Source: a virus
Lineage: Duplodnaviria > Caudoviricetes
Direction: 5' to 3' (one strand)
IMG/VR virus record: IMGVR_UViG_3300017783_000017
Span: 1 to 60,167 of that record
Length of the DNA stretch: 60,167 bases
Below, piece by piece: positions 3,409 through 25,042 of this stretch. Position numbers and translations under genes: made by a program. The first letter of the stretch is position 1. Each line of letters starts with the position of its first letter. Under the pieces are notes generated by a model. That model saw only the letters and a list, made by a program, of their open reading frames with translations. It was not told the DNA's origin and made no database searches.

Positions 3409-4274
3409 GCGAAAAAATTTGATTGATCAAATGTAATCGGTACTTCATATGTCTCAGGTACACCTGCTTTTCTTTCTTCTTCGGTAGCAGTTATATTGAG
3501 AGGTTTGATGTTGAACTTATCTTTCTGTTTTTCCAAATGATCAGTTACTTCTTTAAAGAAGTTCTTATCGCAATTAGCAATAAACTCATCAATGTGTTTT
3601 TGACTTGTTACTTCATCATCTCCGATTTGGATAGATGAAATACTTTTAGACAAAGTTGTAATATTAATTTCAGTTAATTTTTTAAAACTTTCATTAAACT
3701 TTGCTAACTTTTCTTGTTCTGACATTTTGTCATCGTTTACTAATGCAAACACTCTCTGTTCTTCGAACGTCTTTAAAGATACGTCAGTAAACTCTCTATA
3801 TGTTAAAGGACGTAGTCTGACATGAAATTCTTCAATATCAATTTCTGTTTCAAACTGGTGTCCTGTTATATCTCCTAACAAAGAGTTTAGGTCTACACTG
3901 AAATCTTTCTCAGCGCCTGTAACAGGTGTGCTTGTGGTGAGTTCCATAGTATCACCATAAGTAGCAATTCTAATTGCTATTAGTACTGCATCAAGATCAA
4001 CACTTGGCATCATCCAAGGATCTTTGATGTTAGGTACACAACTTTTGATTAAATCAACAGTTGCTTGACCGTTGAGAAGAGCATCTGGTGTTTTCATCGT
4101 AAGCTCATCTTTTGCCGTCATTGCATATATCGGTACTTCCCCATTTTCAGGTAGGTCAATTGCACCTGGTGGGTAAAAAATCCCTCTACTTGGTAAGTTT
4201 AAATAAACTTTTGGTTGTCTAAAATACTTACGTAGCGGATTTTGTTCTTTACCGAGCTTTTCTAAATCAGCCAT
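3405..4274 (-). CDS. gp26: Baseplate hub subunit (T4 gp26-like)
   Basis: P..YL.LPS, MTAKDE, DLDAVLIAIRIATYG motifs and an F.DQSNFF C-terminus typical of T4-like baseplate hub proteins. Confidence 0.7.
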   Translation of the reverse strand: MADLEKLGKEQNPLRKYFRQPKVYLNLPSRGIFYPPGAIDLPENGEVPIYAMTAKDELTMKTPDALLNGQATVDLIKSCVPNIKDPWMMPSVDLDAVLIAIRIATYGDTMELTTSTPVTGAEKDFSVDLNSLLGDITGHQFETEIDIEEFHVRLRPLTYREFTDVSLKTFEEQRVFALVNDDKMSEQEKLAKFNESFKKLTEINITTLSKSISSIQIGDDEVTSQKHIDEFIANCDKNFFKEVTDHLEKQKDKFNIKPLNITATEEERKAGVPETYEVPITFDQSNFFA

Positions 4275-4285
4275 TCTTTTCTCCG

Positions 4286-4327
4286 TATAAATACATTATA
4301 TAAGTATATGTATCACATTTATTTATG
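4286..4327. promoter_or_regulatory. Crossed pair of late promoters
   Basis: TATAAATA on + at 4286-4293 (towards 4353) and CATAAATA on - at 4320-4327 (towards 4274). Confidence 0.65.
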
Positions 4328-4352
4328 TACGTATATAATTGGATGATTAGAT

Positions 4353-7300
4353 TTGGCTGAAGAAGTAGAAATTGGTAATGTAGGCGGAGCAGACGGTGTT
4401 GCTTCCGAAGTTACCTTACAAAAATTATTAGACGCTGTACTTAAACAAGGTATAGGCGGTTCTGGTGGTGCCGGCAAGCTACAAAAAATGCACAATGATG
4501 CATTAAAGCAAGGTGTAACAGCGGCCAAAGATCAAACAAAAGCACAAAAAGACGGCACAGAAGCTACTAAACAAGCAACTGAGTCTACAATAAAACTTTC
4601 AAGGATCATGCAGGGTGCGCTGTTAGGAAGCCTATCAGCAGTAGCAGGATCTATAAAAGGACTTGCAGGCGAAGTACTTAAAGGTAGTGAAAACCTTGGC
4701 GACTTTGCAAAACATCTACCTTTAGTAGGTGGATATCTTGCACCATTAGTAGGACTATTAGATCAAAATGTTGAAGCGTTTAGAAACATGGCTACAATTG
4801 GTGCTACGTTTGGTGACGGCTTAAACGATATAAGAAGGATTTCAGCAGAAGCTGGCGTACCATTAGGTGAGTTCCAAGAACTTGTAATGGAAAATGCAGG
4901 TGCAATGAAACTGTTTGGCGGTACTACTGCATCGGGTGCAAAAAACTTTGCTCGCATGTCTAAGGAATTTAGAGAAGGTCCAGGACAAGAATTGATGATG
5001 CTTGGTTTTTCTGCACAGCAGTTAAATCAAACACTTATTGAATATTCAGAATTTAGTCAAACACAAATTGGTGTTGACAGACGTAATAGAGCAATTGATG
5101 GTGCGCAAGCCGCAGAGTATGCAAAAACATTACAAAATGTTGCCGCGCTAACAGGTAAACGTGCAGATCAAATTGCGGCGGAAATGAAAGCCGCACAAGG
5201 CGATCAGAGAACAAGGTTAGCACTTAACCAAATGGAAGCCGGTGTACGTGAGAAGTTTATGGCAAACATGTCTCAAGCACCTGAAGGCTTACAGAAAACT
5301 TTAACAAACTTAGCATTAGGTATACCAGATGAGCTTGGTGTACAATTAGGATCATTGAGTGATACCTTTAGAGAAAAAGGTCATCAGATTAAGGACATGA
5401 ATCCTGATGAAATGAATGATTTCCTTGCACAAGTTGGTAAAGAACTTGATGCCGCAGGCGCAAGTTTTGGTAGTGCAGGTGGTTTAGTACTTGATGGTGC
5501 TCTTGGCGATGCATTACAAATTGGAGCCGCATTAAGAGACAAACGTCAACTAACTGAGGAAGAAAAGAAAGAACGTAAAGAAGCATTAGCAAGGGAAAAA
5601 GAAACTAACGCAGGAATGAAAAAATTCCATGATGCAATGCGTCAATTAAGTACTGGCGTAATGGCCGCATTTGCTGCCGAAGGTGGTCCTTTAGAAATGC
5701 TTACAAATTCTATGGGCGATCTAACAGGTATGATTACAGACTTTGTTGCAAGCCCTGAGTTTAAAGAAGGTATGAAAACTTTAACAAAGTCTCTTCAAAA
5801 CGGTGTAACACATGTAAAAGAATTTTTTGCTGATATTCAAGAATTTGGATTTGGCACAGCGTTATCAAATCTATTAGAAAAAATCAACTTCCCAAATATA
5901 TTTGCAAAAGTTGGAGATGCTATTGGAGATGCACTAAAGTCAGTGTTTACAGATCCATTAGTGCTTGGTGCTATAGCCGCAATATTTGCAGGACCCAAAC
6001 TCCTTTCAGCAGCCTCAAGTGGTGTAACTAAAATGTTTAGTGGCATGCTTGGCGGTGGTGGAGGCGGCGGAGGCGGCGGCGGAGGCGGCGGTGCCGCACC
6101 AAAAGGACGTCCAGGAGCAGGTGGAGCAAGAGCAGGAGCAAGTGTTGGTAACTTTGTAGGCCAAATGGGCGCAGGCGTAATGAAAGGCGCCGCTGCCGGT
6201 TTAAAAGCATTTGCTAATCCAGCAATACTTGTAGGTGCAGGTATATTAGCCGCTTCTATTACTGCAATTGGTGCAGGTATAGCAGGAGCAACATGGATAA
6301 TTGGTGCTTCACTTCCTAAGTTTGCAGAAGGCATGGAGAAGTTTGAAGAAGTAGACGGACCAGCATTAGTCGCAGCCGCCAAAGGCATGTTAGCAATTAG
6401 TGGAGCAATGGTAGCATTTGGCGCAGGTTCAGCAGTATCAGGATTAGGACAATTAGTAGGCGGAATAACTGAAGGCTTAGCAGGACTGTTTGGCGCAGAC
6501 GATCCGTTGACTAAGATGAAGAAATTCTCTGATGCTAACTTAGATGCTACAAAAGTAGAAGCTAACGCAAAAGCATTGGTAGCATATTCGACAGCAATGG
6601 CCGCATATGGAGGCGGAGCAGCCGCGGCTGGCTTAGGAACATTAGTTGGTGGAATAGCAACAGGTATTACGAGCTTCTTTGGAGGCGACACAGAAATACC
6701 ATTTGATAAAATTGCAAAATTTGGCACATATAATATTGACTTAGCAGGCGTAGAAAATAACGCTAAAGCATTAGTAGCATATTCAAACGCAATGGCAAAA
6801 TACTCAGCAGGTAGTGCTGGCGCAAGCATCATGGGCGCAGTGGGTAGTGTGTTTGATGCAGTAAGTGGTTTCTTTGGCGGAGAAAAAGAAGAATTACCAT
6901 TTGATAAAATAAAAGCATTTGCAAGTGTTGACTTAGGTGATACAGAAAAAATTAAAGGTAACGCAGACGCTGTAGCGGCATTTGGCAACGCTATGAGTTC
7001 ATTGCCTGCAAACCTTGATGGTGAACGCTCAGGCGGATTAATGGGTGCAGTTGCAGGATTCTTTAAAGGCGAGCAAAAGTTACCATATGATAGAATAAAA
7101 GAATTTGCTGATGTAGATCTTGGAGATACTGCAAAGGTAAAAAGTAATGCAGAAGCAGTAAGTGCATTTGGTACAGCAATGAGTAACTTACCAGCAAACA
7201 TAGACGGAGAAAGATCCGGCGGATTGTTTGGTGCTCTTGCAACAGCATTTGGTGGTGGCAAAAAACTACCTTATGAAAATATCAAAGCATTTAGTACAGC

Positions 7301-12025: not shown

Positions 12026-13123
12026 ATGATAGATGCACTGAAACAACTCTTCGAAAGCGATGCAATAAACGAAGATATCAGAGCTGAAATTGAAGAAGCT
12101 TGGAACGCAAAAGTCAAAGAGAACAAACAGTCAGTGACTGCTGAACTCCGCGAAGAATTTGCTGCCAAGTACGAACATGACAAGCAGGCAATGGTTGAGT
12201 CAATCGACCAAATGCTAAGTGAAAACTTAACTGCTGAGATTGCAGAATTTGCAGAAGACCGCAAAGCACTTTCAGAGCAAAAAGCAAAATATGCTGTTGC
12301 AATGAAAGAAAATGCACATCTCTTAAAAGACTTTGTTGTAAATCAATTACAAAAAGAAGTAAGCGAATTACGTTCAGACAAAGTTAAAATGGCAGAAAGT
12401 TATTCAAAACTTGAAGAGTTCGTTGTAGAAGCTCTTACTTCCGAAATTGCAGAATTTCAAGAAGATAAAAATGATTTGGCTGAAACAAAAGTACGTTTGG
12501 TCAAAGAAGCAAAAGCACATCTTGCTAAAGTTAAAGACAACTTTATCAAGCGTGGTGCTACTGCCGTATCCAATCTTGTTAGTGAAAGTCTTAACAAAGA
12601 AATTCATCAACTTAAAGAAGATATTGATACAGCACGTAAAAATGATTTTGGTCGCAAAATTTTCGAAGCATACGCAGCCGAGTATGGCACTTCTTACTTA
12701 AATGAGAAGAGCGAGACTGCAAAACTTCTAAAAGTAATCGACACAAAAGATAAACAGTTAGCTGAAGCAAAGGCATTCGCTGCCAAAGCTAAAGACATAG
12801 CTGTAAATGTAGACACTTCACGTAAAGCACTTGAAGAGTCTATCAAAAGAGAAAAAATAATTAACGATTTGGTTTCACCGTTAGGTAAAGACCAAAAAGA
12901 AATTATGACAGATTTACTGGAATCAGTACAAACTGCAAGATTAACAAAGCAGTTTGAAAAATATTTACCAACAGTTATTGACGGTAATACTCCAGCAAAG
13001 CAGAAGGCAGTATTAAAAGAAGGCAAAGAAGTAACAGGCAACAGAGAACAACCAACTAACGTTAGTAGTGAAGCAGACGAATCAAATGTCATTGACATCA
13101 AACGTCTTGCTGGTTTAAATTAA
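12026..13123 (+). CDS. gp22: Prohead scaffolding protein (T4 gp22-like)
   Basis: Coiled-coil protein between protease and capsid. GRKIFEA motif and C-terminal KRLAGL. Confidence 0.8.
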   Translation: MIDALKQLFESDAINEDIRAEIEEAWNAKVKENKQSVTAELREEFAAKYEHDKQAMVESIDQMLSENLTAEIAEFAEDRKALSEQKAKYAVAMKENAHLLKDFVVNQLQKEVSELRSDKVKMAESYSKLEEFVVEALTSEIAEFQEDKNDLAETKVRLVKEAKAHLAKVKDNFIKRGATAVSNLVSESLNKEIHQLKEDIDTARKNDFGRKIFEAYAAEYGTSYLNEKSETAKLLKVIDTKDKQLAEAKAFAAKAKDIAVNVDTSRKALEESIKREKIINDLVSPLGKDQKEIMTDLLESVQTARLTKQFEKYLPTVIDGNTPAKQKAVLKEGKEVTGNREQPTNVSSEADESNVIDIKRLAGLN

Positions 13124-13133
13124 GGAGATAATT

Positions 13134-14309
13134 ATGTCAGAACTACTCGAAAGTCGCTGGCAGGATACAAAGACAGCACTTCTTGAAGGCCTTAAGGGCA
13201 ACAAGAAATCAGTTATGGCTGCAACTTTGGAAAATACGAGAGCGTATTTGTCAGAGTCAGCAACAGCTGGTGCTACATCTGCCGGTAATGTCGCAACTCT
13301 TAATAGAGTTATCCTACCAGTCATCAGACGTGTTATGCCAACAGTGATTGCAAATGAACTTGTTGGGGTACAACCAATGACCGGTCCAGTGGGTCAAATC
13401 CACACACTAAGAGTCCGTTATTCGGACACTTACGCAGGCACAGCAGGCGGTTCAACAACCGCAGGCGAAGAAGCTCTTTCACCATTCAAAATAGCTGAAG
13501 GTTATTCAGGTAATGCAAATGGTAAAGCAGATGCTACAGCAACTAAAGAAGGTACAGCTGGAAATCAACTAAGCATCCAGATCCTCAAGCAAACAGTCGA
13601 AGCTAAGACACGTAAATTGTCAGCTCGCTGGACATTTGAGGCGGCTCAGGACGCTCAGTCACAGCACGGTATTGACGTAGAAGCTGAAATCATGGCAGCA
13701 CTTGCACAAGAAATTACTGCTGAAATCGACCAAGAGGTCCTTTCAAGTCTTAATACTCTTGCAGGTACAGCCGCACTTACATACGATCAGGCCGCTGTAT
13801 CAGGTACAGCAACATTCGTTGGTGACGAACACGCCGCATTGGCAGTTCAAATCAATAGAGTTGCAAACTTGATTGCACAGCGTACACGTAGAGGCGCAGG
13901 TAACTGGGCCGTAGTTAGCCCATTTGCGCTAACGATCCTACAAAGTGCAACAACTTCAGCATTTGCAAGAACTACTGAAGGAACTTTTGAAGCTCCAACT
14001 AACACTAAAATGGTTGGTACTTTGAACAACGCTATGAAGGTATATGTTAACACATATGCAGCCGACAGTGCAAACGTACTTGTTGGTTACAAAGGTTCAA
14101 GCGAATCAGATGCGGCAGCGTTTTATTGCCCATACATTCCGCTAATGAGCTCAGGTGTTGTATTAGATCCATCAACATTCGAACCAACAGTATCATTTAT
14201 GACACGTTATGGTTATGTTGAGCTAAACAATACTGCTTCATCGCTTGGTAACGCCGCTGATTACTTGGCTGCCGTTGCAATTACCAATGGTAATGTATCT
14301 TTTAGCTAA
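13134..14309 (+). CDS. gp23: Major capsid protein (T4 gp23-like)
   Basis: RRVMPTVIANELVGVQPMTGPVG, VEAKTRKLSARWT.E.AQD, AEIDQE, FYCPYIPL, TRYG motifs. Confidence 0.97.
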   Translation: MSELLESRWQDTKTALLEGLKGNKKSVMAATLENTRAYLSESATAGATSAGNVATLNRVILPVIRRVMPTVIANELVGVQPMTGPVGQIHTLRVRYSDTYAGTAGGSTTAGEEALSPFKIAEGYSGNANGKADATATKEGTAGNQLSIQILKQTVEAKTRKLSARWTFEAAQDAQSQHGIDVEAEIMAALAQEITAEIDQEVLSSLNTLAGTAALTYDQAAVSGTATFVGDEHAALAVQINRVANLIAQRTRRGAGNWAVVSPFALTILQSATTSAFARTTEGTFEAPTNTKMVGTLNNAMKVYVNTYAADSANVLVGYKGSSESDAAAFYCPYIPLMSSGVVLDPSTFEPTVSFMTRYGYVELNNTASSLGNAADYLAAVAITNGNVSFS

Positions 14310-14332
14310 GATATAAAGCATAGCAAAATTGG

Positions 14333-14360
14333 AAATAGGCCCTTCGGGGCCTATTTTTTT
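14333..14360 (+). terminator. Rho-independent terminator after the capsid gene
   Basis: AAATAGGCCC-TTCG-GGGCCTATTT followed by a T run. Confidence 0.92.
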
Positions 14361-14373
14361 GACTAAATATTAT

Positions 14374-14419
14374 TACGTTCATCCTACGGGACGGAAGTAG
14401 CATTAGCGAAGGAACGCAC
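14374..14419 (+). ncRNA. Glutamine riboswitch (glnA RNA motif), compact form
   Basis: P1 CGTTC 14376-80/GAACG 14412-16; P2 TCC-TACG-GGA; conserved CGGAAGTA E-loop strand; P3 GC-ATTA-GC; GAAGGAACGC end. Confidence 0.8.
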
Positions 14420-14444
14420 TTTAACTTTAACGAGGAGAAGTGTA

Positions 14445-14543
14445 ATGGACAACTATACGCTTTGGTGCTTTCAACAGCTTATCAAACTGCACCATAAGAA
14501 AAAAGTTGACTTTTTATTGCAAAAAGTGCAAAAAAGTGGTTGA
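14445..14543 (+). CDS. 32-aa basic peptide MDNYTLWCFQQLIKLHHKKKVDFLLQKVQKSG downstream of the riboswitch
   Basis: GAGGAG SD at 14432-14437, ATG at 14445, TGA at 14541-14543. Too short for the ORF track. Confidence 0.55.
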   Translation: MDNYTLWCFQQLIKLHHKKKVDFLLQKVQKSG

Positions 14544-14567
14544 CTTTTATAATATAGATGCTATATT
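14540..14567 (+). promoter_or_regulatory. Sigma70-type (early) promoter
   Basis: TTGACT 14540-45, 16-nt spacer, extended -10 TGc-TATATT 14559-67, and upstream A tracts. Confidence 0.65.
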
Positions 14568-14573
14568 AGTAAC

Positions 14574-14792
14574 ATAAGCAATAAAAGAGTAATTAACTTT
14601 TATTTTTTAGTGCATCGAAGAGGCTCTTACCAGAGGGTTGAAGATGACAGCTTAGGGGTGGTACCCAGGCATGGTTGCAGAAATGCGTTGTGTCACATCG
14701 CTCTACCGAGCGGAAGTTGGTTCCCGGGATTCAGACAGGTATCTGTGTCGAAGGGTTGTAGGTGAAACCGAGTCCTACCTAAAATTGCTTAT
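14574..14792 (+). ncRNA. ~220-nt structured RNA, manA-motif-like
   Basis: Closing helix ATAAGCAAT 14574-82/ATTGCTTAT 14784-92; two TACC-loop hairpins and two GGTA loops; GCA-GAAA-TGC GNRA hairpin; GTAGG/CCTAC. GC-rich with no ORF. The GGTGGT...ATCG..TACC..CGG pattern recalls the manA motif. Confidence 0.7.
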
Positions 14793-14806
14793 TCTTAAAC
14801 AGGCGC

Positions 14807-15070
14807 TTAGGCGTCTGTTTTCTTATTAAAAATTCCAAACTTTTTACATTTAGCAATAAACGTTGTACGTTTGATTCCTAAAGATTTGCTTGCATGTGTT
14901 TGATTGTAGTTGTGTTCAATTAAAGCATCTTTAATTTTATCTATTATAAAATCTTCTGTTTCTTTATCTAAATTTTTTGTAGGTACGTTCTGGTCATCTT
15001 TGATATTATGATGTCGACTCATTTCCTCAAAAGCTTCGAACATTACATCCTGTTCTGACTTTAGCACCAT
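14807..15070 (-). CDS. Stand-alone Fis-family (HTH_8) DNA-binding protein
   Basis: IKDALIEHNYNQTHASKSLGIKRTTFIAKCKKFGI matches the C-terminal HTH of Fis and NtrC/FleQ-type activators. No AAA+ domain. Confidence 0.8.
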   Translation of the reverse strand: MVLKSEQDVMFEAFEEMSRHHNIKDDQNVPTKNLDKETEDFIIDKIKDALIEHNYNQTHASKSLGIKRTTFIAKCKKFGIFNKKTDA

Positions 15071-15093
15071 TTAGATTCCTGACCTTATTAAGA

Positions 15094-15101
15094 TATTTAT
15101 G
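15094..15101 (-). promoter_or_regulatory. Late promoter CATAAATA for the Fis-like gene
   Basis: TATTTATG on the + strand, about 24 nt upstream of the ATG at 15070. Confidence 0.6.
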
Positions 15102-15146
15102 CAGTGTTTGCAAAACAATTACAATGATCGGAAACATATTACATAT

Positions 15147-15164
15147 GTGTTAAAATTTTAACAC
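15147..15164. promoter_or_regulatory. Perfect 18-bp palindrome, candidate CRP/Clr-family or Fis-type operator
   Basis: GTGTTAAAATTTTAACAC = TGTTA-N6-TAACA / TGTT-N8-AACA, 5 nt upstream of the csgF late promoter. Confidence 0.55.
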
Positions 15165-15169
15165 CAAGC

Positions 15170-15196
15170 GATAAATACAAGTGGAGGGCTTCCTTT
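15170..15196 (+). promoter_or_regulatory. Late promoter and leader of the csgF operon (copy 1 of the 19-bp element)
   Basis: GATAAATA followed by CAAGTGGAGGGCTTCCTTT and ATG. 15171-15189 is identical to the reverse complement of 24455-24473. Confidence 0.75.
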
Positions 15197-15685
15197 ATGA
15201 AGATAAGAAATATACATATCATCGGTCTGACTTTAGCACTTACATTTGCTATACCCAATGTTGCCGCAAGTGACTTGACTTGGAGTTTTAAATCTCCAGC
15301 ATTTCATTATGGTAACGGCTACAGTACTCACGTACTAAGTGTAGAACAGCTACAGTTTAACCGCAGAAAAGAAATTGCAGATGCACAGAAAGCAGAAGCG
15401 GCTCGCTTAGAGCGTGAATTAGAAAATACTACACTTAATAAATTTATTAAGAACGTTGAATCAAGAATATATGCACAACTATCAAAACAAATGGTTGATA
15501 GTATGTTTGCTGATTGTGATGCCACAACAGGCACATGCCCAACATCAGGAACAGCAGAAATCGAAGGTTCAACTATATCATGGGTTAAAGATGCTATAAC
15601 TGGAGAAATCACTTTGACTGTTGTTGAAGAAGATGGCTCTACTACTGAAATATCGATACCAGGATCAGGAGAGTTTAATTTTTAG
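15197..15685 (+). CDS. csgF: Curli assembly protein CsgF-like
   Basis: Signal peptide, then SDLTWSFKSPAFHYGNG (cf. CsgF GTMTFQFRNPNFGG). FIKNVESRIYAQLS and a C-terminal G.TTEI.IP. Immediately upstream of csgG. Confidence 0.85.
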   Translation: MKIRNIHIIGLTLALTFAIPNVAASDLTWSFKSPAFHYGNGYSTHVLSVEQLQFNRRKEIADAQKAEAARLERELENTTLNKFIKNVESRIYAQLSKQMVDSMFADCDATTGTCPTSGTAEIEGSTISWVKDAITGEITLTVVEEDGSTTEISIPGSGEFNF

Positions 15686-15686
15686 T

Positions 15687-16490
15687 ATGCTGAAAACTGT
15701 TTGTGCCATTCTTACCCTTGCATTCCTAACAGGCTGTGCAGGCATGCAAAGCATGGAAAAATTAATAGATTCACAGGACAGTCCTGGATTACAGGTGTCA
15801 CCTATTAAAGATAGAATGATGAATGTTCGTCCTATAGATGGACCAAAAATTACAATAGCAGTATACCAATTTGCAGATAAAACAGGACAACGTAAACCTG
15901 CAGATAATATTGCTAATTTAAGTAGCGCAGTAACACAAGGAAGTGAAGTTTGGGTTATTAAAGCTCTACAAGAAGTAGGAAACGGAACGTGGTTTGAAGT
16001 TGTTGAAAGAGTGGGCATGGACCACTTGATTAAAGAACGTCAGTTGATACGTAACACACGTGACGTGTATGAAAAAGATTTACCTAATGGTCCAACGCCA
16101 TTAAAACCTATGTTGTTTGCGGGCTTATTGCTTGAAGGCGGCATTGTAGGATACGACAGCAATGTTGCAGTCGGAGGAATTGGAGCAAGGTATTTAGGAA
16201 TAGGAGCACAAACAGAGTACAGAATAGACACTGTTACTATTGTGATGCGCCTTGTTAGTGTTAGCACCGGTAAGGTGTTGATGAGCATAGCAACCGAAAA
16301 AACGATTGCAAGCTACAGGTCCGGAGCGGACATCTTCAAGTTTTTGGATTTGGGGACTAAATTAGTGGAGTCGGAAGCCGGCTTCAGTGTTAATGAACCA
16401 GTTAATTATGCTGTGAGGGCAGCCATTGAACAAGGCATAATAGAGCTGGTAAACGAAGGAGTTAATAAAGGACTCTGGAAGTTTAAATAA
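15687..16490 (+). CDS. csgG: Curli secretion channel lipoprotein CsgG
   Basis: Probable start is ATG 15687, giving lipobox LTGC. AVYQFADKTGQRKP, SSAVTQG, WF.VVER.G...L.KERQLIR, EGGIVGYDSN, GG.GARYLGIG motifs. Confidence 0.93.
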   Translation: MLKTVCAILTLAFLTGCAGMQSMEKLIDSQDSPGLQVSPIKDRMMNVRPIDGPKITIAVYQFADKTGQRKPADNIANLSSAVTQGSEVWVIKALQEVGNGTWFEVVERVGMDHLIKERQLIRNTRDVYEKDLPNGPTPLKPMLFAGLLLEGGIVGYDSNVAVGGIGARYLGIGAQTEYRIDTVTIVMRLVSVSTGKVLMSIATEKTIASYRSGADIFKFLDLGTKLVESEAGFSVNEPVNYAVRAAIEQGIIELVNEGVNKGLWKFK

Positions 16491-16503
16491 GAGGGTAACT
16501 ATT

Positions 16504-17250
16504 ATGAAAAGTATAAAATTGTACTTAACAGCTATACTCTGGTTTACTGTATCTACTGCTCTGGCAAACGATATTTACATCGAGCAGGTCGGAGACACAT
16601 TAGACTTAGACATAGTACAAGATGGTGCGAATAATGTTATAGGCACAGCAACAACTGCGGCTATTTTAGAGGGCGACGGTATGACGTTCGATATTACACA
16701 GACAGGAAGTGCAAACGTTATTGCGGCAACTATCAAAGGAGTGAACTACGAAGGAACATGGGATTTTACTGGTGATCGTAACACAGTAGACATGTTATGT
16801 TCAAGCGCAAGTTCGGGTAATTGTGATGACGTTACGTTGAATGTCACTGTAGATGGTGATGACAACGAATTCAAGTTTTATGTAGGGCAATCTGCAGATG
16901 CAGAAGATTTACTTGCGGCATTCACTGTTGATGGAGACGGAAACGTTTTTGACGTTGACGTTGACGGAACAGATGCAAACATAACTGTCACTGTAGATAA
17001 CAGTGCATCGTTAGCATCTAACCAAGTCCAATCAGCTACCGATAATAATCTTTCAACAAGTGTTGCTGGAGGAAATATTATTGATTTAGATATAGACGGT
17101 AATGGAGATACAAACGGGCATGAAATTATCTTAGATATTACAGGCGGCGGGTCATCTTACACCATTAACCAAAGTGGCGTTAACGACAACAAAGTTGATG
17201 CAACTTTTTCAGGTGATGGTCAAACTGTCAATATAACGCAGAGTGACTAA
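16504..17250 (+). CDS. Secreted curlin-like beta-solenoid repeat protein
   Basis: Signal peptide ending ALA. Repeats such as IYIEQVGDTLDLDIVQDGANN, ITQTGSAN, V.VDGDDN, INQSGVNDN. Directly after csgG. Confidence 0.7.
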   Translation: MKSIKLYLTAILWFTVSTALANDIYIEQVGDTLDLDIVQDGANNVIGTATTAAILEGDGMTFDITQTGSANVIAATIKGVNYEGTWDFTGDRNTVDMLCSSASSGNCDDVTLNVTVDGDDNEFKFYVGQSADAEDLLAAFTVDGDGNVFDVDVDGTDANITVTVDNSASLASNQVQSATDNNLSTSVAGGNIIDLDIDGNGDTNGHEIILDITGGGSSYTINQSGVNDNKVDATFSGDGQTVNITQSD

Positions 17251-18385
17251 AATGTTAAGATTAATTCTAACATTCGCATTTTTTCTTTCGAGCACCTCAA
17301 CCGTTTATGCTAATTTGTCAGCAGGCAATATTGGCGAAATGAAAGGCTCTGGCGTGCTTGAAAGGCGAAATGATGTAATTACAGGTGGCGCAGGCGTAAG
17401 TGTGCAAAGTATGGACACTGCGGTTACAGCTAACGGTAAAATGAGAATTGATTTTATTGACGAAACACGAGTAGATTTAACAGAACATTCAAGACTTTTG
17501 ATTGACGAGTTTGTCTATGACCCTGCAAACGATATAGGCAAACTTTCAATTAAGGCCTCCTTAGGAGGTGTGAGATATGCTTCAGGCCAAATAGCAAAAA
17601 AATATAGACAAAACGTACAAATTAAAACACCATCTGCTACAATCGGAGTTAGGGGAACCGATTTTATATTAGTAGTAGACGAGGCGGGCGGCACGATGGT
17701 AACACTTTTACCCTCTTGTGATGTAGATGGGTATTGCTACACAGGAGAAATAGAAGTGGAAACCGATGCTGGCTTTGTAATTATGAACCAAGCCTTCCAA
17801 TCCACCATGGTTACACACGGCATGCGTCCCCCGACTCCCCCTTTAATTTTAGATATAGGCGAATCAGAAATCAACCAACTATTAATATTACGTAAGAAAA
17901 AACCTTATGAAGAAGAGGAAGATGAAATACGTAAAAAAACAAAAAAGATGTTTGATTTTCTTGATATAGATTTTTTAGAATTTGACGAACTTAATAATGA
18001 TGCACTAACATCAGATGTGCAAAATATATGGGCTACAGAGTTAGATGATAGCGATTACTATCTATCTGATTTGTTAGTTGATATGTTAGATGTTTTAAAT
18101 TTAGCATTAGCTAACTTATTTAGAGATCAACTTAAACTGGAAAACCAAGAAATATTTAGACAAAAACAAATTACAGGATATGACGAAACAACACGTATAT
18201 TCCTTGATTACGAAGAACCTACATATCATATAAGAAGAAAAGATATTTCGTTAAACAACAATATAGATATAAAATTAAATGATCAATACGGTTATACTCT
18301 AAACATAGAACAGCAAGACGAAGCAGTGTATGAATATCTACTTGGTGTAGGTGCTAATAGTATAGATATAAAGCAGAGACAATAA
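17243..18385 (+). CDS. FecR-domain periplasmic protein
   Basis: Signal peptide. D...T......I.F.D.T.V.L.E.S.L.ID and IKTPSATIGVRGTDF motifs of the FecR domain. Confidence 0.85.
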   Translation: MTKMLRLILTFAFFLSSTSTVYANLSAGNIGEMKGSGVLERRNDVITGGAGVSVQSMDTAVTANGKMRIDFIDETRVDLTEHSRLLIDEFVYDPANDIGKLSIKASLGGVRYASGQIAKKYRQNVQIKTPSATIGVRGTDFILVVDEAGGTMVTLLPSCDVDGYCYTGEIEVETDAGFVIMNQAFQSTMVTHGMRPPTPPLILDIGESEINQLLILRKKKPYEEEEDEIRKKTKKMFDFLDIDFLEFDELNNDALTSDVQNIWATELDDSDYYLSDLLVDMLDVLNLALANLFRDQLKLENQEIFRQKQITGYDETTRIFLDYEEPTYHIRRKDISLNNNIDIKLNDQYGYTLNIEQQDEAVYEYLLGVGANSIDIKQRQ

Positions 18386-24490: not shown

Positions 24491-24592
24491 GATAAATACA
24501 TATGTCAGATAGTGTGCCGCAAGGCGGACTTATGCTGTACCCACAGCGTAGCTCATAGAACGGGCATAGGACTACTATTATAGGAGAAAACA
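24491..24592 (+). promoter_or_regulatory. Late promoter plus multi-hairpin structured 5' leader
   Basis: GATAAATA 24491-98; ATAGT 24509-13/ACTAT 24574-78; GCC-GCAA-GGC; TATGCTGT-ACCC-ACAGCGTA; GCTC/GGGC. Confidence 0.6.
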
Positions 24593-25042
24593 ATGGGAAG
24601 ACCACTTAATAAAAGGTTGATGGGAACGCCGACAGCAGCCGGCAACGAAATCAAAGTAAACTTTCATAACGGCACAGCAGTTAAAGAAGGTTATATCGTA
24701 AAGCAAAAAGGCTCAAAGAAATTTGTATGTGAAGAAATTGGAACAGCAGGCGAATTTACTTGTACACTAACAACTGGTAAATTACCAGCGGCATTAGCGG
24801 CAGGCGAAATGGCTATTTCATTCAAAATGGACGACAGTGAAACTTACACAGTAAGTAAAATTGCTGGACGTAAAGCAACTTTATCTGCTCCAAGTGGAAC
24901 AGGTGCAAACGCTTATGACGGACTTAGTGTAGCGTGGAACTTTAGCACAAGTACTTCAGATGGTGCGGCACAAGTTGAAGAAGCTGGTGACGACAACACA
25001 TTAGTAGGTACTGATGACGACGACTTCACAGAAGACGCATAA
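24593..25042 (+). CDS. Conserved hypothetical virion-associated protein
   Basis: 149 aa, strong AGGAG SD, MGRPLNK...GYIVKQKGSKKF motif. First gene of the structural block. Confidence 0.65.
   Translation: MGRPLNKRLMGTPTAAGNEIKVNFHNGTAVKEGYIVKQKGSKKFVCEEIGTAGEFTCTLTTGKLPAALAAGEMAISFKMDDSETYTVSKIAGRKATLSAPSGTGANAYDGLSVAWNFSTSTSDGAAQVEEAGDDNTLVGTDDDDFTEDA

Follow-up and report, generated by a model that had tools for sequence, protein, structure and literature searches.

Is an RNA of the manA family always a leader of the gene behind it, or can it be the product of a gene of its own? The question is raised by a stretch of DNA from an uncultured tailed phage (Caudoviricetes; IMG/VR record IMGVR_UViG_3300017783_000017, positions 1 to 60,167), here called the window, in which a plus-strand manA RNA at 14580-14788 is followed by a gene of opposite orientation. 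The motif was described from marine metagenomes, T4-like cyanophages and two γ-proteobacteria, 'commonly in potential 5' UTRs' (untranslated regions), and was proposed as a riboswitch candidate (Weinberg et al. 2010, PMC2864571). It has remained an orphan 'riboswitch candidate' since 2010; a report of 2026, based on in vitro work only, made it the first natural RNA described as an icosahedral 60-mer. For the window, an original prediction made from the DNA letters had described at 14540-14792 a free-standing manA-like RNA with its own start, pairing ends, loops suited to multimerisation and no downstream gene.

In an Rfam search (cmscan), the window RNA matches manA (RF01745) with 59.8 bits against a gathering cut-off of 55.2 (E 9e-13) over model positions 1-192, the whole model, and a second RF01745 search again matches it (E 2.2e-16). 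By this sequence match the window RNA is a member of the manA family, as the original prediction had proposed.

Predicted transcription unit of the manA RNA

Transcription is predicted to start at ~14574 from a promoter-like site of the sigma-70 type (Table 1), and the terminal closing helix, P0, begins at the same nucleotide. Read as its reverse complement, ATAAGCAAT at 14574-82 matches ATTGCTTAT at 14784-92 exactly, so that the 9-bp helix claimed to join the start to the end of the RNA is indeed there; the last 3 nt of its 5' strand overlap the 5' hairpin. An intrinsic terminator, its hairpin followed by TCTTATT, starts 4 nt past the closing helix, and the next gene, a minus-strand open reading frame (ORF), is convergent, as had been stated. 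Little can be read from the window by itself, since it holds 4 promoter-like sites compared with 5.3 in shuffled sequences, and thus no excess, along with 4 terminator-like sites compared with 1.3 in shuffles, and the fold of the RNA has a z-score of only -1.45. Because neither the promoter count nor the fold z-score is beyond chance, the weight given to these features comes from relatives, in which promoter, terminal helix and terminator are conserved along with the complementarity of the loops.

Table 1. Features of the manA locus in the window; loop designations beginning with L follow the numbering of Ren et al. 2026 as assigned in the text.
Feature	Positions	Strand	Details
Glutamine riboswitch, RF01739	14374-14420	+	49.6 bits
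32-codon ORF, MDNYTLWCFQQLIKLHHKKKVDFLLQKVQKSG	14446-14543	+	Stop (14541-43) overlaps the -35 box of the manA promoter
Sigma-70-type promoter	14540-14567	+	-35 TTGACT 14540-45, 16-nt spacer, extended -10 TG 14559-60, TATATT 14562-67
Closing helix P0, 5' strand, AUAAGCAAU	14574-14582	+	Begins at the predicted start
manA RNA core	14580-14788	+	RF01745 match; 30 nested consensus pairs, 25 with compensatory changes (RNAalifold, 73 relatives)
Hairpin 2 loop (assigned L3), ACCA	14629-14632	+	UACCA with U14628; complementary to GGUA 14738-41
Hairpin 3 loop (assigned L5), GUGGUA	14658-14663	+	Partner UACC 14704-07
Long-hairpin GNRA tetraloop GAAA (assigned L6)	14680-14683	+	GNRA string there in 62 of 73 relatives
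Hairpin 4 loop (assigned L7), UACC	14704-14707	+	Partner of 14660-63
Hairpin 5 loop (assigned L8), CAGGUA	14736-14741	+	Candidate partners UACC 14628-31 (4 bp) and ACC 14767-69 (3 bp)
Hairpin 6 loop (assigned L9), UGAAACCGAGU	14763-14773	+	ACC at 14767-69; best non-nested covariation in the family
Closing helix P0, 3' strand, AUUGCUUAU	14784-14792	+	Pairs with 14574-14582
Intrinsic terminator	14797-14830	+	10-pair hairpin 14797-14820 (-12.2 kcal/mol), then TCTTATTAAA
Convergent 87-aa ORF, HTH_8 (Fis-type)	14807-15070	-	Pfam E 2.4e-6; stop inside the terminator hairpin

Related loci, designated below by three-digit L numbers, were collected by capsid similarity, with a 16-nt pattern from the window and with a degenerate pattern of the core, and counts of relatives are throughout among the matches listed. 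At least 118 unique manA cores were obtained by script, with 16 truncated or false, and contexts were counted for the 102 unique cores that are complete and have 60 nt or more of downstream sequence. The form of the promoter predicted in the window is widely kept, a sigma-70-type promoter standing before 93 of the 100 unique cores with at least 80 nt upstream. In the 92 promoters analysed, the -35 box is TTGACA (50) or TTGACT (37), the spacer measures 16-17 nt, TGn precedes the -10 box in 77 cases, and the -10 box is TATATT (55) or TATAAT (23). The pairing of the RNA ends is also conserved: in alignment A2 (MAFFT; 73 representatives less than 94% identical, with the window as first row) the terminal-helix column pair 14-245 is GC in 43 sequences, AU in 22 and other in 7, and the covarying helix types include AAGCAA:UUGCUU, AUGCA:UGCAU and AUAGCAAAA:UUUUCUAU. 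Cognate leaders and tails also pair better than permuted ones do (z -3.6; 2 of 2000 permutations as low).

An intrinsic terminator starts within 30 nt of the RNA in 57 of the 102 unique relatives, with varied stems, long T runs and hairpins of -7.4 to -20.4 kcal/mol (mean -14.1 kcal/mol). The next element in such relatives is a GATAAATAC box, often followed by a leader formed by the freshwater-2 RNA, and the downstream genes thus have start signals of their own. Another 23 of the 102 carry a TATAAATA-like (late-promoter-like) box 6-12 nt past the RNA and then an ORF, and 14 show other arrangements, including two with tRNA-Gly(UCC). In the latter (L128, 105-392, minus strand; L149, ~4140-4439, plus strand) the tRNA gene lies within a few bases past manA; the two genes make up an RNA-only unit in which cleavage by RNase P would define the 3' end of manA, an arrangement that fits a stable RNA gene.

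The leader position, a context feature of the Rfam motif that is not part of its model, is not found in the window and is likewise missing in the 57 terminator-bearing relatives. The original prediction held that the window RNA cannot be a 5' leader, and this is supported by its own promoter, the terminal helix, the strong terminator, the convergent next gene and the presence of a separate GATAAATAC box (15170-78) before the csgF-like gene farther on. The stated absence of a downstream gene is correct for the window but peculiar to it, as the convergent gene occurs in no other collected locus, unlike the combination of own promoter and own terminator, which is general among the relatives. It appears likely that the window RNA is encoded by an independent RNA gene.

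Two other roles of the RNA can be considered. One is a transcription-terminating riboswitch, in which manA would be the aptamer and the hairpin at 14797-14820 the expression platform that gates read-through. The listing of manA as a cis-regulatory or riboswitch candidate (Rfam; Weinberg et al. 2010, PMC2864571) agrees with such a switch, as does the orientation of the next ORF of at least 60 aa, which matches that of the RNA in 39 of the 51 terminator-bearing relatives with enough sequence, and one RNA-library contig crosses the terminator. However, the terminator arms pair with the RNA body no better than shuffled arms do (5' arm, mean z -0.05, with z below -2 in 2 of 57 relatives; 3' arm, mean z -0.46, with z below -2 in 4 of 57), and the terminator stems differ freely while the 3' part of the RNA is conserved; for these two reasons the terminator is unlikely to serve as a riboswitch platform. 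The strength of the hairpins and the length of their T runs point the same way, read-through in the window would be antisense to the convergent gene, and a separate promoter-like box stands before the downstream genes, joined in relatives by a freshwater-2 leader, so that a switch of this kind is quite improbable. The second role is that of a small RNA that controls host or phage messages by base pairing through an exposed single-stranded seed. Bacterial small RNAs have a similar stand-alone anatomy from promoter to terminator, but the conserved positions of manA are structural, being located in helices and mutually pairing loops and not in a free seed, and we give this role hardly any credence.

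Loop-loop pairings and proposed assembly of the RNA

The original prediction had placed two TACC motifs (14628-31 and 14704-07) and two GGTA motifs (14660-63 and 14738-41) in hairpin loops, and the minimum-energy fold does put all four there. In the first of these hairpins TACC is present but is not the whole loop, because a compensatory C-G to G-C change in Pelagibacter phage Mosig fixes the stem as CUCUU/GAGGG and the loop as ACCA (14629-32). A third ACC-bearing loop, at 14767-69 in the last hairpin, had been overlooked. The description of the loops as self-complementary had to be given up: they complement one another instead, and a GGTACC palindrome at 14660-65 is not conserved among the relatives.

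When the nested consensus structure is extended by the terminal helix and two loop pairings, 86.2% of it is paired in the alignment, compared with 67.3% after shuffling (0 of 500 as high) and 36-51% in slid controls. The loop columns of the alignment are imperfect, which lowers and does not raise the paired percentages, and the shuffle controls ignore relatedness and so overstate significance, which makes the many distinct pair types the stronger argument. The loops were also compared all against all (21 loop pairs) by duplex energy, setting unique cognate combinations against 2000 permutations. The lowest value was obtained for hairpins 5 and 6 (L8-L9; z -10.2) and the next for hairpins 2 and 5 (L3-L8; z -4.8), with none of the permutations as low in either case, followed by hairpins 2 and 3 (L3-L5; z -3.3, 2 permutations as low) and hairpins 3 and 4 (L5-L7; z -2.3, 21 as low); the remaining 17 loop pairs showed no enrichment over permuted pairs.

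Between the loops of hairpins 5 and 6 lie the best non-nested column pairs by average-product-corrected mutual information, 193-224, 192-225 and 194-222. The first is GC in 52 sequences, UA in 14, AU in 5 and GU in 2, with none unpaired, and the second is GC in 48, AU in 15, CG in 4 and other in 6. Compensating types are CUGAU:AUCAG, AAUGAUC:GAUCAUU, AGGAU:AUCCU, AUGGAAU:AUUCCAU, CAGAA:UUCUG and CGAGA:UCUCG, and 74.8% of the alignment cells are paired. For hairpins 3 and 4 the paired cells amount to 73.5%, column pair 102-155 is GC in 27 sequences, AU in 20, GU in 3 and other in 23, and the compensating types are GGUA:UACC, UAGU:ACUA, UGU:ACA, UGC:GCA and UAU:AUA. Hairpins 2 and 5 (columns 68-71 with 192-195) are paired in 75.5% of cells, a value reached in 0 of 500 shuffles, and the types for hairpin 2 with the 3' side of hairpin 5 are ACAGA:UCUGU, ACAAA:UUUGU, GUAGA:UCUAC, GUAAG:CUUAC and GCAGC:GUUGC. 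Control helices between hairpins 2 and 3 (columns 68-71/102-105, 66.4%) and between hairpins 4 and 5 (152-155/192-195, 51.7%) jointly gave 58.7%, which equals the shuffle mean (250 of 500 as high); the enrichment of L3-L5 in the duplex test arises because L5 and L8 both read UGGUA in this sequence type. Runs of at least 5 bp in wide loop windows, a poorly discriminating statistic, occurred in 40 of 73 relatives for L8-L9 (34% in non-cognate pairs), 42 of 73 for L3-L8 (24%), 34 of 73 for L5-L7 (15%) and 26 of 73 for the control L7-L8 (34%).

Covariation of the loop pairs among homologs, the lack of which had been named as a refutation, was found, and in sequence terms it supports three loop-loop pairings: 14660-63 with 14704-07, 14738-41 with 14767-69, and 14628-32 with the hairpin of 14738-41. 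An exclusive pairing of TACC with GGTA was rejected, as ACC at 14767-69 is a second candidate partner of 14738-41 and has the strongest covariation. The L8 variants GGCA and GGAAU keep L3 unchanged; L3-L8 is nevertheless retained as one of the two candidate partnerships on account of its 75.5% paired cells and of the L3-L8' contact reported by Ren et al. (10.64898/2026.07.01.735769).

A side observation concerns hairpins 2 and 5. In one sequence type (L004, L185, L210 and L183; columns 62-80 and 176-206) the hairpin 2 loop repeats the 5' strand of the hairpin 5 inner stem; in L210, for instance, UAGACAG occurs in both the hairpin 2 loop and the hairpin 5 strand, and both copies complement the same 3' strand. 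L181 and L183 have lost the hairpin 5 inner stem and kept the two loop contacts. The repeated strand may act as a switch between two states; another possibility is a large L8 loop that offers two docking sites side by side.

These pairings can be compared with the assemblies solved by cryo-electron microscopy (cryo-EM), in which in vitro transcripts of manA RNAs below 200 nt form a 60-subunit T=1 icosahedral cage (A0F1), decamers (67AA, pho_A28C and pho34_A767) and an octamer (6FAB, octamer/decamer), all of them built from pentamers (Ren et al. 2026, 10.64898/2026.07.01.735769). In one group, pentamers are joined by the intermolecular kissing loops L5-L7' and L8-L9', and in the other by an L6-P6' GNRA-receptor interaction along with L5-L7' and L3-L8' (same preprint). 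When the helices are counted in order (closing helix, P2, then hairpins 2-6 with the junction stem) and the GNRA loop is placed on the long hairpin, hairpins 2, 3, 4, 5 and 6 would correspond to L3, L5, L7, L8 and L9 of the preprint. Since helix order and the GNRA loop yield these numbers, the three covarying pairings would be the three published intermolecular interfaces. Against the complementary loops L5/L7 with L8/L9 or L3/L8 of the cages, the window has, in the assigned numbering, GGUA/UACC at 14660-63/14704-07, GGUA/UACC at 14738-41/14628-31 and GGU/ACC at 14738-40/14767-69. The pho34_A767 type has a GNRA loop at L6 and so has the window (GAAA, 14680-83), whose two UACC and two GGUA loops (L3, L7, L5 and L8) would fit a network of this type. 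The published RNAs are T7 transcripts below 200 nt observed in vitro and presented, in the available text, outside any genomic context or expression. The capacity of manA relatives to multimerise in vitro is thus already known (10.64898/2026.07.01.735769), and the suggestion that the window RNA could do so through its loops gains from the covariation of the same loop pairs. If these pairs are the interfaces, their covariation suggests that selection acts on the contacts and possibly on the assemblies.

The following course of events can be proposed. Host RNA polymerase would start at the strong sigma-70-type promoter at ~14574 and stop at the terminator at ~14820-14830, giving an RNA of ~250 nt with its ends zipped by a helix of 6-9 bp. 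The RNA would fold into the nine-helix manA core and present five loops, UACCA, GUGGUA, UACC, CAGGUA and one with ACC, which most likely would pair between copies, GGUA 14660-63 with UACC 14704-07, and GGUA 14738-41 with UACC 14628-31 and/or ACC 14767-69. The product would then assemble itself into a particle, either a closed oligomer or a cage built on pentamers, and would not be a switch for a downstream gene. For the statement as a whole, a stand-alone manA RNA gene whose product self-assembles through its loops, we put belief and doubt at about equal weight.

A farther-reaching reading, which we consider unlikely, is that giant marine phages build an RNA-only, capsid-like shell in the infected cell from the 250-nt manA RNA. 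The strong host-type promoter would flood the cell with RNA, and the pentamer-based cages might enclose or display something such as phage RNA, a metabolite or a host factor; selection would have maintained the loop contacts in at least three sequence types. The stand-alone gene, sometimes as an RNA-only operon with a tRNA, would then be the natural form of manA, and the copies in 5' leaders a derived use. Such a shell, if real, would be the first case of an RNA compartment that plays a biological role.

Other phage RNAs offer points of comparison. The ROOL and GOLLD RNAs are large phage and prophage RNAs that are independently transcribed, form RNA-only multimers through loop contacts and often lie near tRNA genes, as manA does in L128 and L149; their protomers are several hundred nucleotides each, unlike those of manA. 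The prohead RNA of phage phi29 has ~170 nt, is made from an early promoter and forms rings by intermolecular pairing of two 4-nt loops. The window manA gene lies directly after the genes for prohead protease, scaffold and major capsid protein, and the resemblance to phi29 is an analogy only, with no sign of homology. To our knowledge T4-type packaging needs no RNA, and in other phages manA adjoins metabolic genes. In the introduction of the preprint, ROOL and GOLLD are cited as dihedral, not icosahedral, assemblies (10.64898/2026.07.01.735769).

The family and its loop-driven multimerisation are already known, and the addition made here is the layout as a stand-alone gene. In the main texts returned by the literature searches, neither a stand-alone manA layout nor natural covariation of the interface loops was found. 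Two points are thereby added: in a lineage of uncultured giant phages manA has its own gene, complete with terminal helix, terminator and a host-type promoter close to the consensus, and the loop pairs that would form the interfaces covary in nature. The existence and timing of RNA cages in cells become a question that can be approached with defined constructs and predicted transcript ends, and the cultured phages Mosig and P-RSM6, with related copies of the leader type, could serve for experiments.

Counter-evidence and leader-type copies

Several observations weigh against a self-assembling product of a separate gene. Assembled contigs of four RNA-library runs were compared with 13000-16600, uncovered stretches being left uninterpreted; they have a depth of 2-5, their strand is not known and DNA carry-over is possible. 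They cover 14373-14523, 14564-14714 and 14752-14902 (run X2), 14391-14600 (X4), 14630-14813 (X7) and 14393-14555 (X8), so that the X4 contig spans the promoter and the last X2 contig spans the terminator, and no transcript ends are seen in these low-depth contigs. There is also no terminator between the upstream riboswitch with its 32-codon ORF and the manA RNA, and since nothing terminates transcripts from the glutamine riboswitch before 14797, these longer transcripts probably carry the manA RNA too.

The same facts raise the question of whether manA is mainly the 3' part of a message running from the riboswitch and coding for the 32-aa peptide, acting as a stabiliser in the 3' UTR or as a processed product, with the promoter adding little. 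The gap free of terminators between the stop of the small ORF (14541-43) and the RNA would suit this, as would the X4 contig, which has no mismatch, and the order of riboswitch and then manA recurs in 4 of the 20 loci scanned (L105, L106, L107 and L118). On the other hand, 93 of 100 relatives retain the near-consensus extended -10 promoter, many with no upstream riboswitch among them, and the conserved closing helix starts exactly at the predicted start. We find this account of the RNA very doubtful; it and transcription from an independent promoter are not mutually exclusive.

The sample of relatives is biased by the way it was fetched, through capsid similarity and two sequence patterns, and unique sequences are not independent lineages. 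Leader layouts do occur, an ORF starting 23-33 nt past the RNA in 8 of the 102 unique relatives (counted within 45 nt). The canonical copy of cyanophage P-RSM6, also a marine phage, scores 188 bits and lies as a leader 27 nt before talC (transaldolase). It has the same covariance-model architecture as the window RNA, which shares the GGU/ACC-type loop complementarity of the Rfam consensus line, whereas the window copy scores 59.8 bits, has its own promoter, terminal helix and terminator with a convergent gene behind, and belongs to a giant-phage lineage. The unannotated copy of Pelagibacter phage Mosig (MT647606.1) is 78.6% identical to the window over 14574-14781, with the same promoter type, the same UACC/GGUA loops and compensatory changes in three hairpins, yet it lacks a terminator and is followed ~30 nt past the RNA by a ribosome-binding site and the start of a rubrerythrin gene. 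Given these leader copies, manA may still have a cis role elsewhere, and the preprint text treats it as a putative cis-regulatory element (10.64898/2026.07.01.735769). Finally, among the 45 related capsid loci long enough for the count, 17 have manA within 2.5 kb downstream of the capsid gene, and in the other 28 the pattern used did not find it, which makes it an accessory element of these loci.

For the loops, the variants L011, L056 and L154 have GGCA in L8 and no compensating change in L3 or L9, the L8-L9 pairing of the window amounts to 3 bp (GGU:ACC), and the matching of loops to preprint numbers takes only helix order and the GNRA loop as its guide. Covariation, moreover, cannot separate intramolecular from intermolecular pairing and fits both equally. 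This makes a monomeric structured RNA acting in trans a serious rival: its loop pairs would be internal kissing loops, it would serve as a decoy, sponge or sensor that binds a protein or small molecule, and no oligomers would form in the cell. The paired loops belong to hairpins that are neighbours at the same junctions, a 'pseudoknot?' with weak covariation was drawn within the motif by Weinberg et al. (2010, PMC2864571), and the published assemblies were obtained in vitro from refolded T7 transcripts, the term 'in vivo' being absent from the available preprint text (10.64898/2026.07.01.735769). In all manA variants described there, however, the kissing loops are intermolecular; several loops have only 4 nt (UACC, ACCA) and are wholly taken up by pairing, and the gene associations found here suggest no ligand or protein partner. 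On balance a purely monomeric RNA seems rather unlikely.

Phage lineage and neighbouring genes

The IMG/VR record has an estimated completeness of 22% (CheckV). Upstream of the RNA are genes for a prohead protease, a protein known only from PHROG and a Gp23-type major capsid protein (13134-14309), followed at ~14331-58 by a GC hairpin and T run that was seen by eye and not listed by the terminator scan. The capsid protein shares 65-70% identity with its counterparts in giant phages (Phosso, PA5oct, the 121Q/RaK2 type) and only ~33% with the capsid proteins of Melnitz, HTVC008M and cyanophages; judged by these identities, the window is part of the genome of a giant phage, marine and uncultured, and not of a cyanophage. 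The giant-phage relatives (Phosso, 469 kb; PA5oct, 287 kb; 121Q/RaK2 type, ~350 kb) are cultured and infect soil and gut bacteria. Despite the ~33% capsid identity to marine T4-like phages, RNA elements and curli genes are common to the window and the pelagiphages Mosig and Melnitz.

The HTH_8 gene between the manA terminator and csgF was detected by tblastn, among the collected loci, only at the locus of the window itself, and for this reason it looks like a recent insertion. Beyond it, 15197-18385 holds genes for csgF-like (PF10614), csgG-like (PF03783) and FecR-domain proteins; they make up the curli pore module of phages that has been discussed for Melnitz and pelagimyophages. Elsewhere in the window, a freshwater-2 RNA (RF02980, 65.8 bits) is located at 24513-24595, ahead of a 149-aa ORF (24593-25042). 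In 7 of 20 relatives (L105, L106, L107, L113, L117, L118 and L129) freshwater-2 stands directly past the manA terminator, behind a GATAAATAC box and ahead of a csgF-like ORF, and glutamine riboswitch, manA and freshwater-2 together form a three-RNA island.

A search with RF01745 gave a match in 25 of 100 related records, a figure unused for frequencies as the prefilter missed divergent copies such as L004, and blastn of L105, the best-scoring relative, found no match in the phage collection. No riboswitches are reported for pelagimyophages in the available text of a survey of these phages (PMC7029224), and that of the Melnitz paper (PMC9004378) makes no mention of manA. In Pelagibacter phage HTVC008M (L252; NC_020484.1, 5037-5223) a weak manA-like match of 25.9 bits, below the cut-off, overlaps the hypothetical ORF gp008, a call that may be spurious, 72 nt ahead of the gene for a single-stranded-DNA-binding protein. 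In Melnitz (L003; MZ577097.1, 45984-46471) a transfer-messenger RNA annotation, 'SsrA', overlaps a match with 86.7% identity to the glutamine riboswitch of the window, an arrangement of SsrA and riboswitch that is discussed in the Melnitz paper (PMC9004378).

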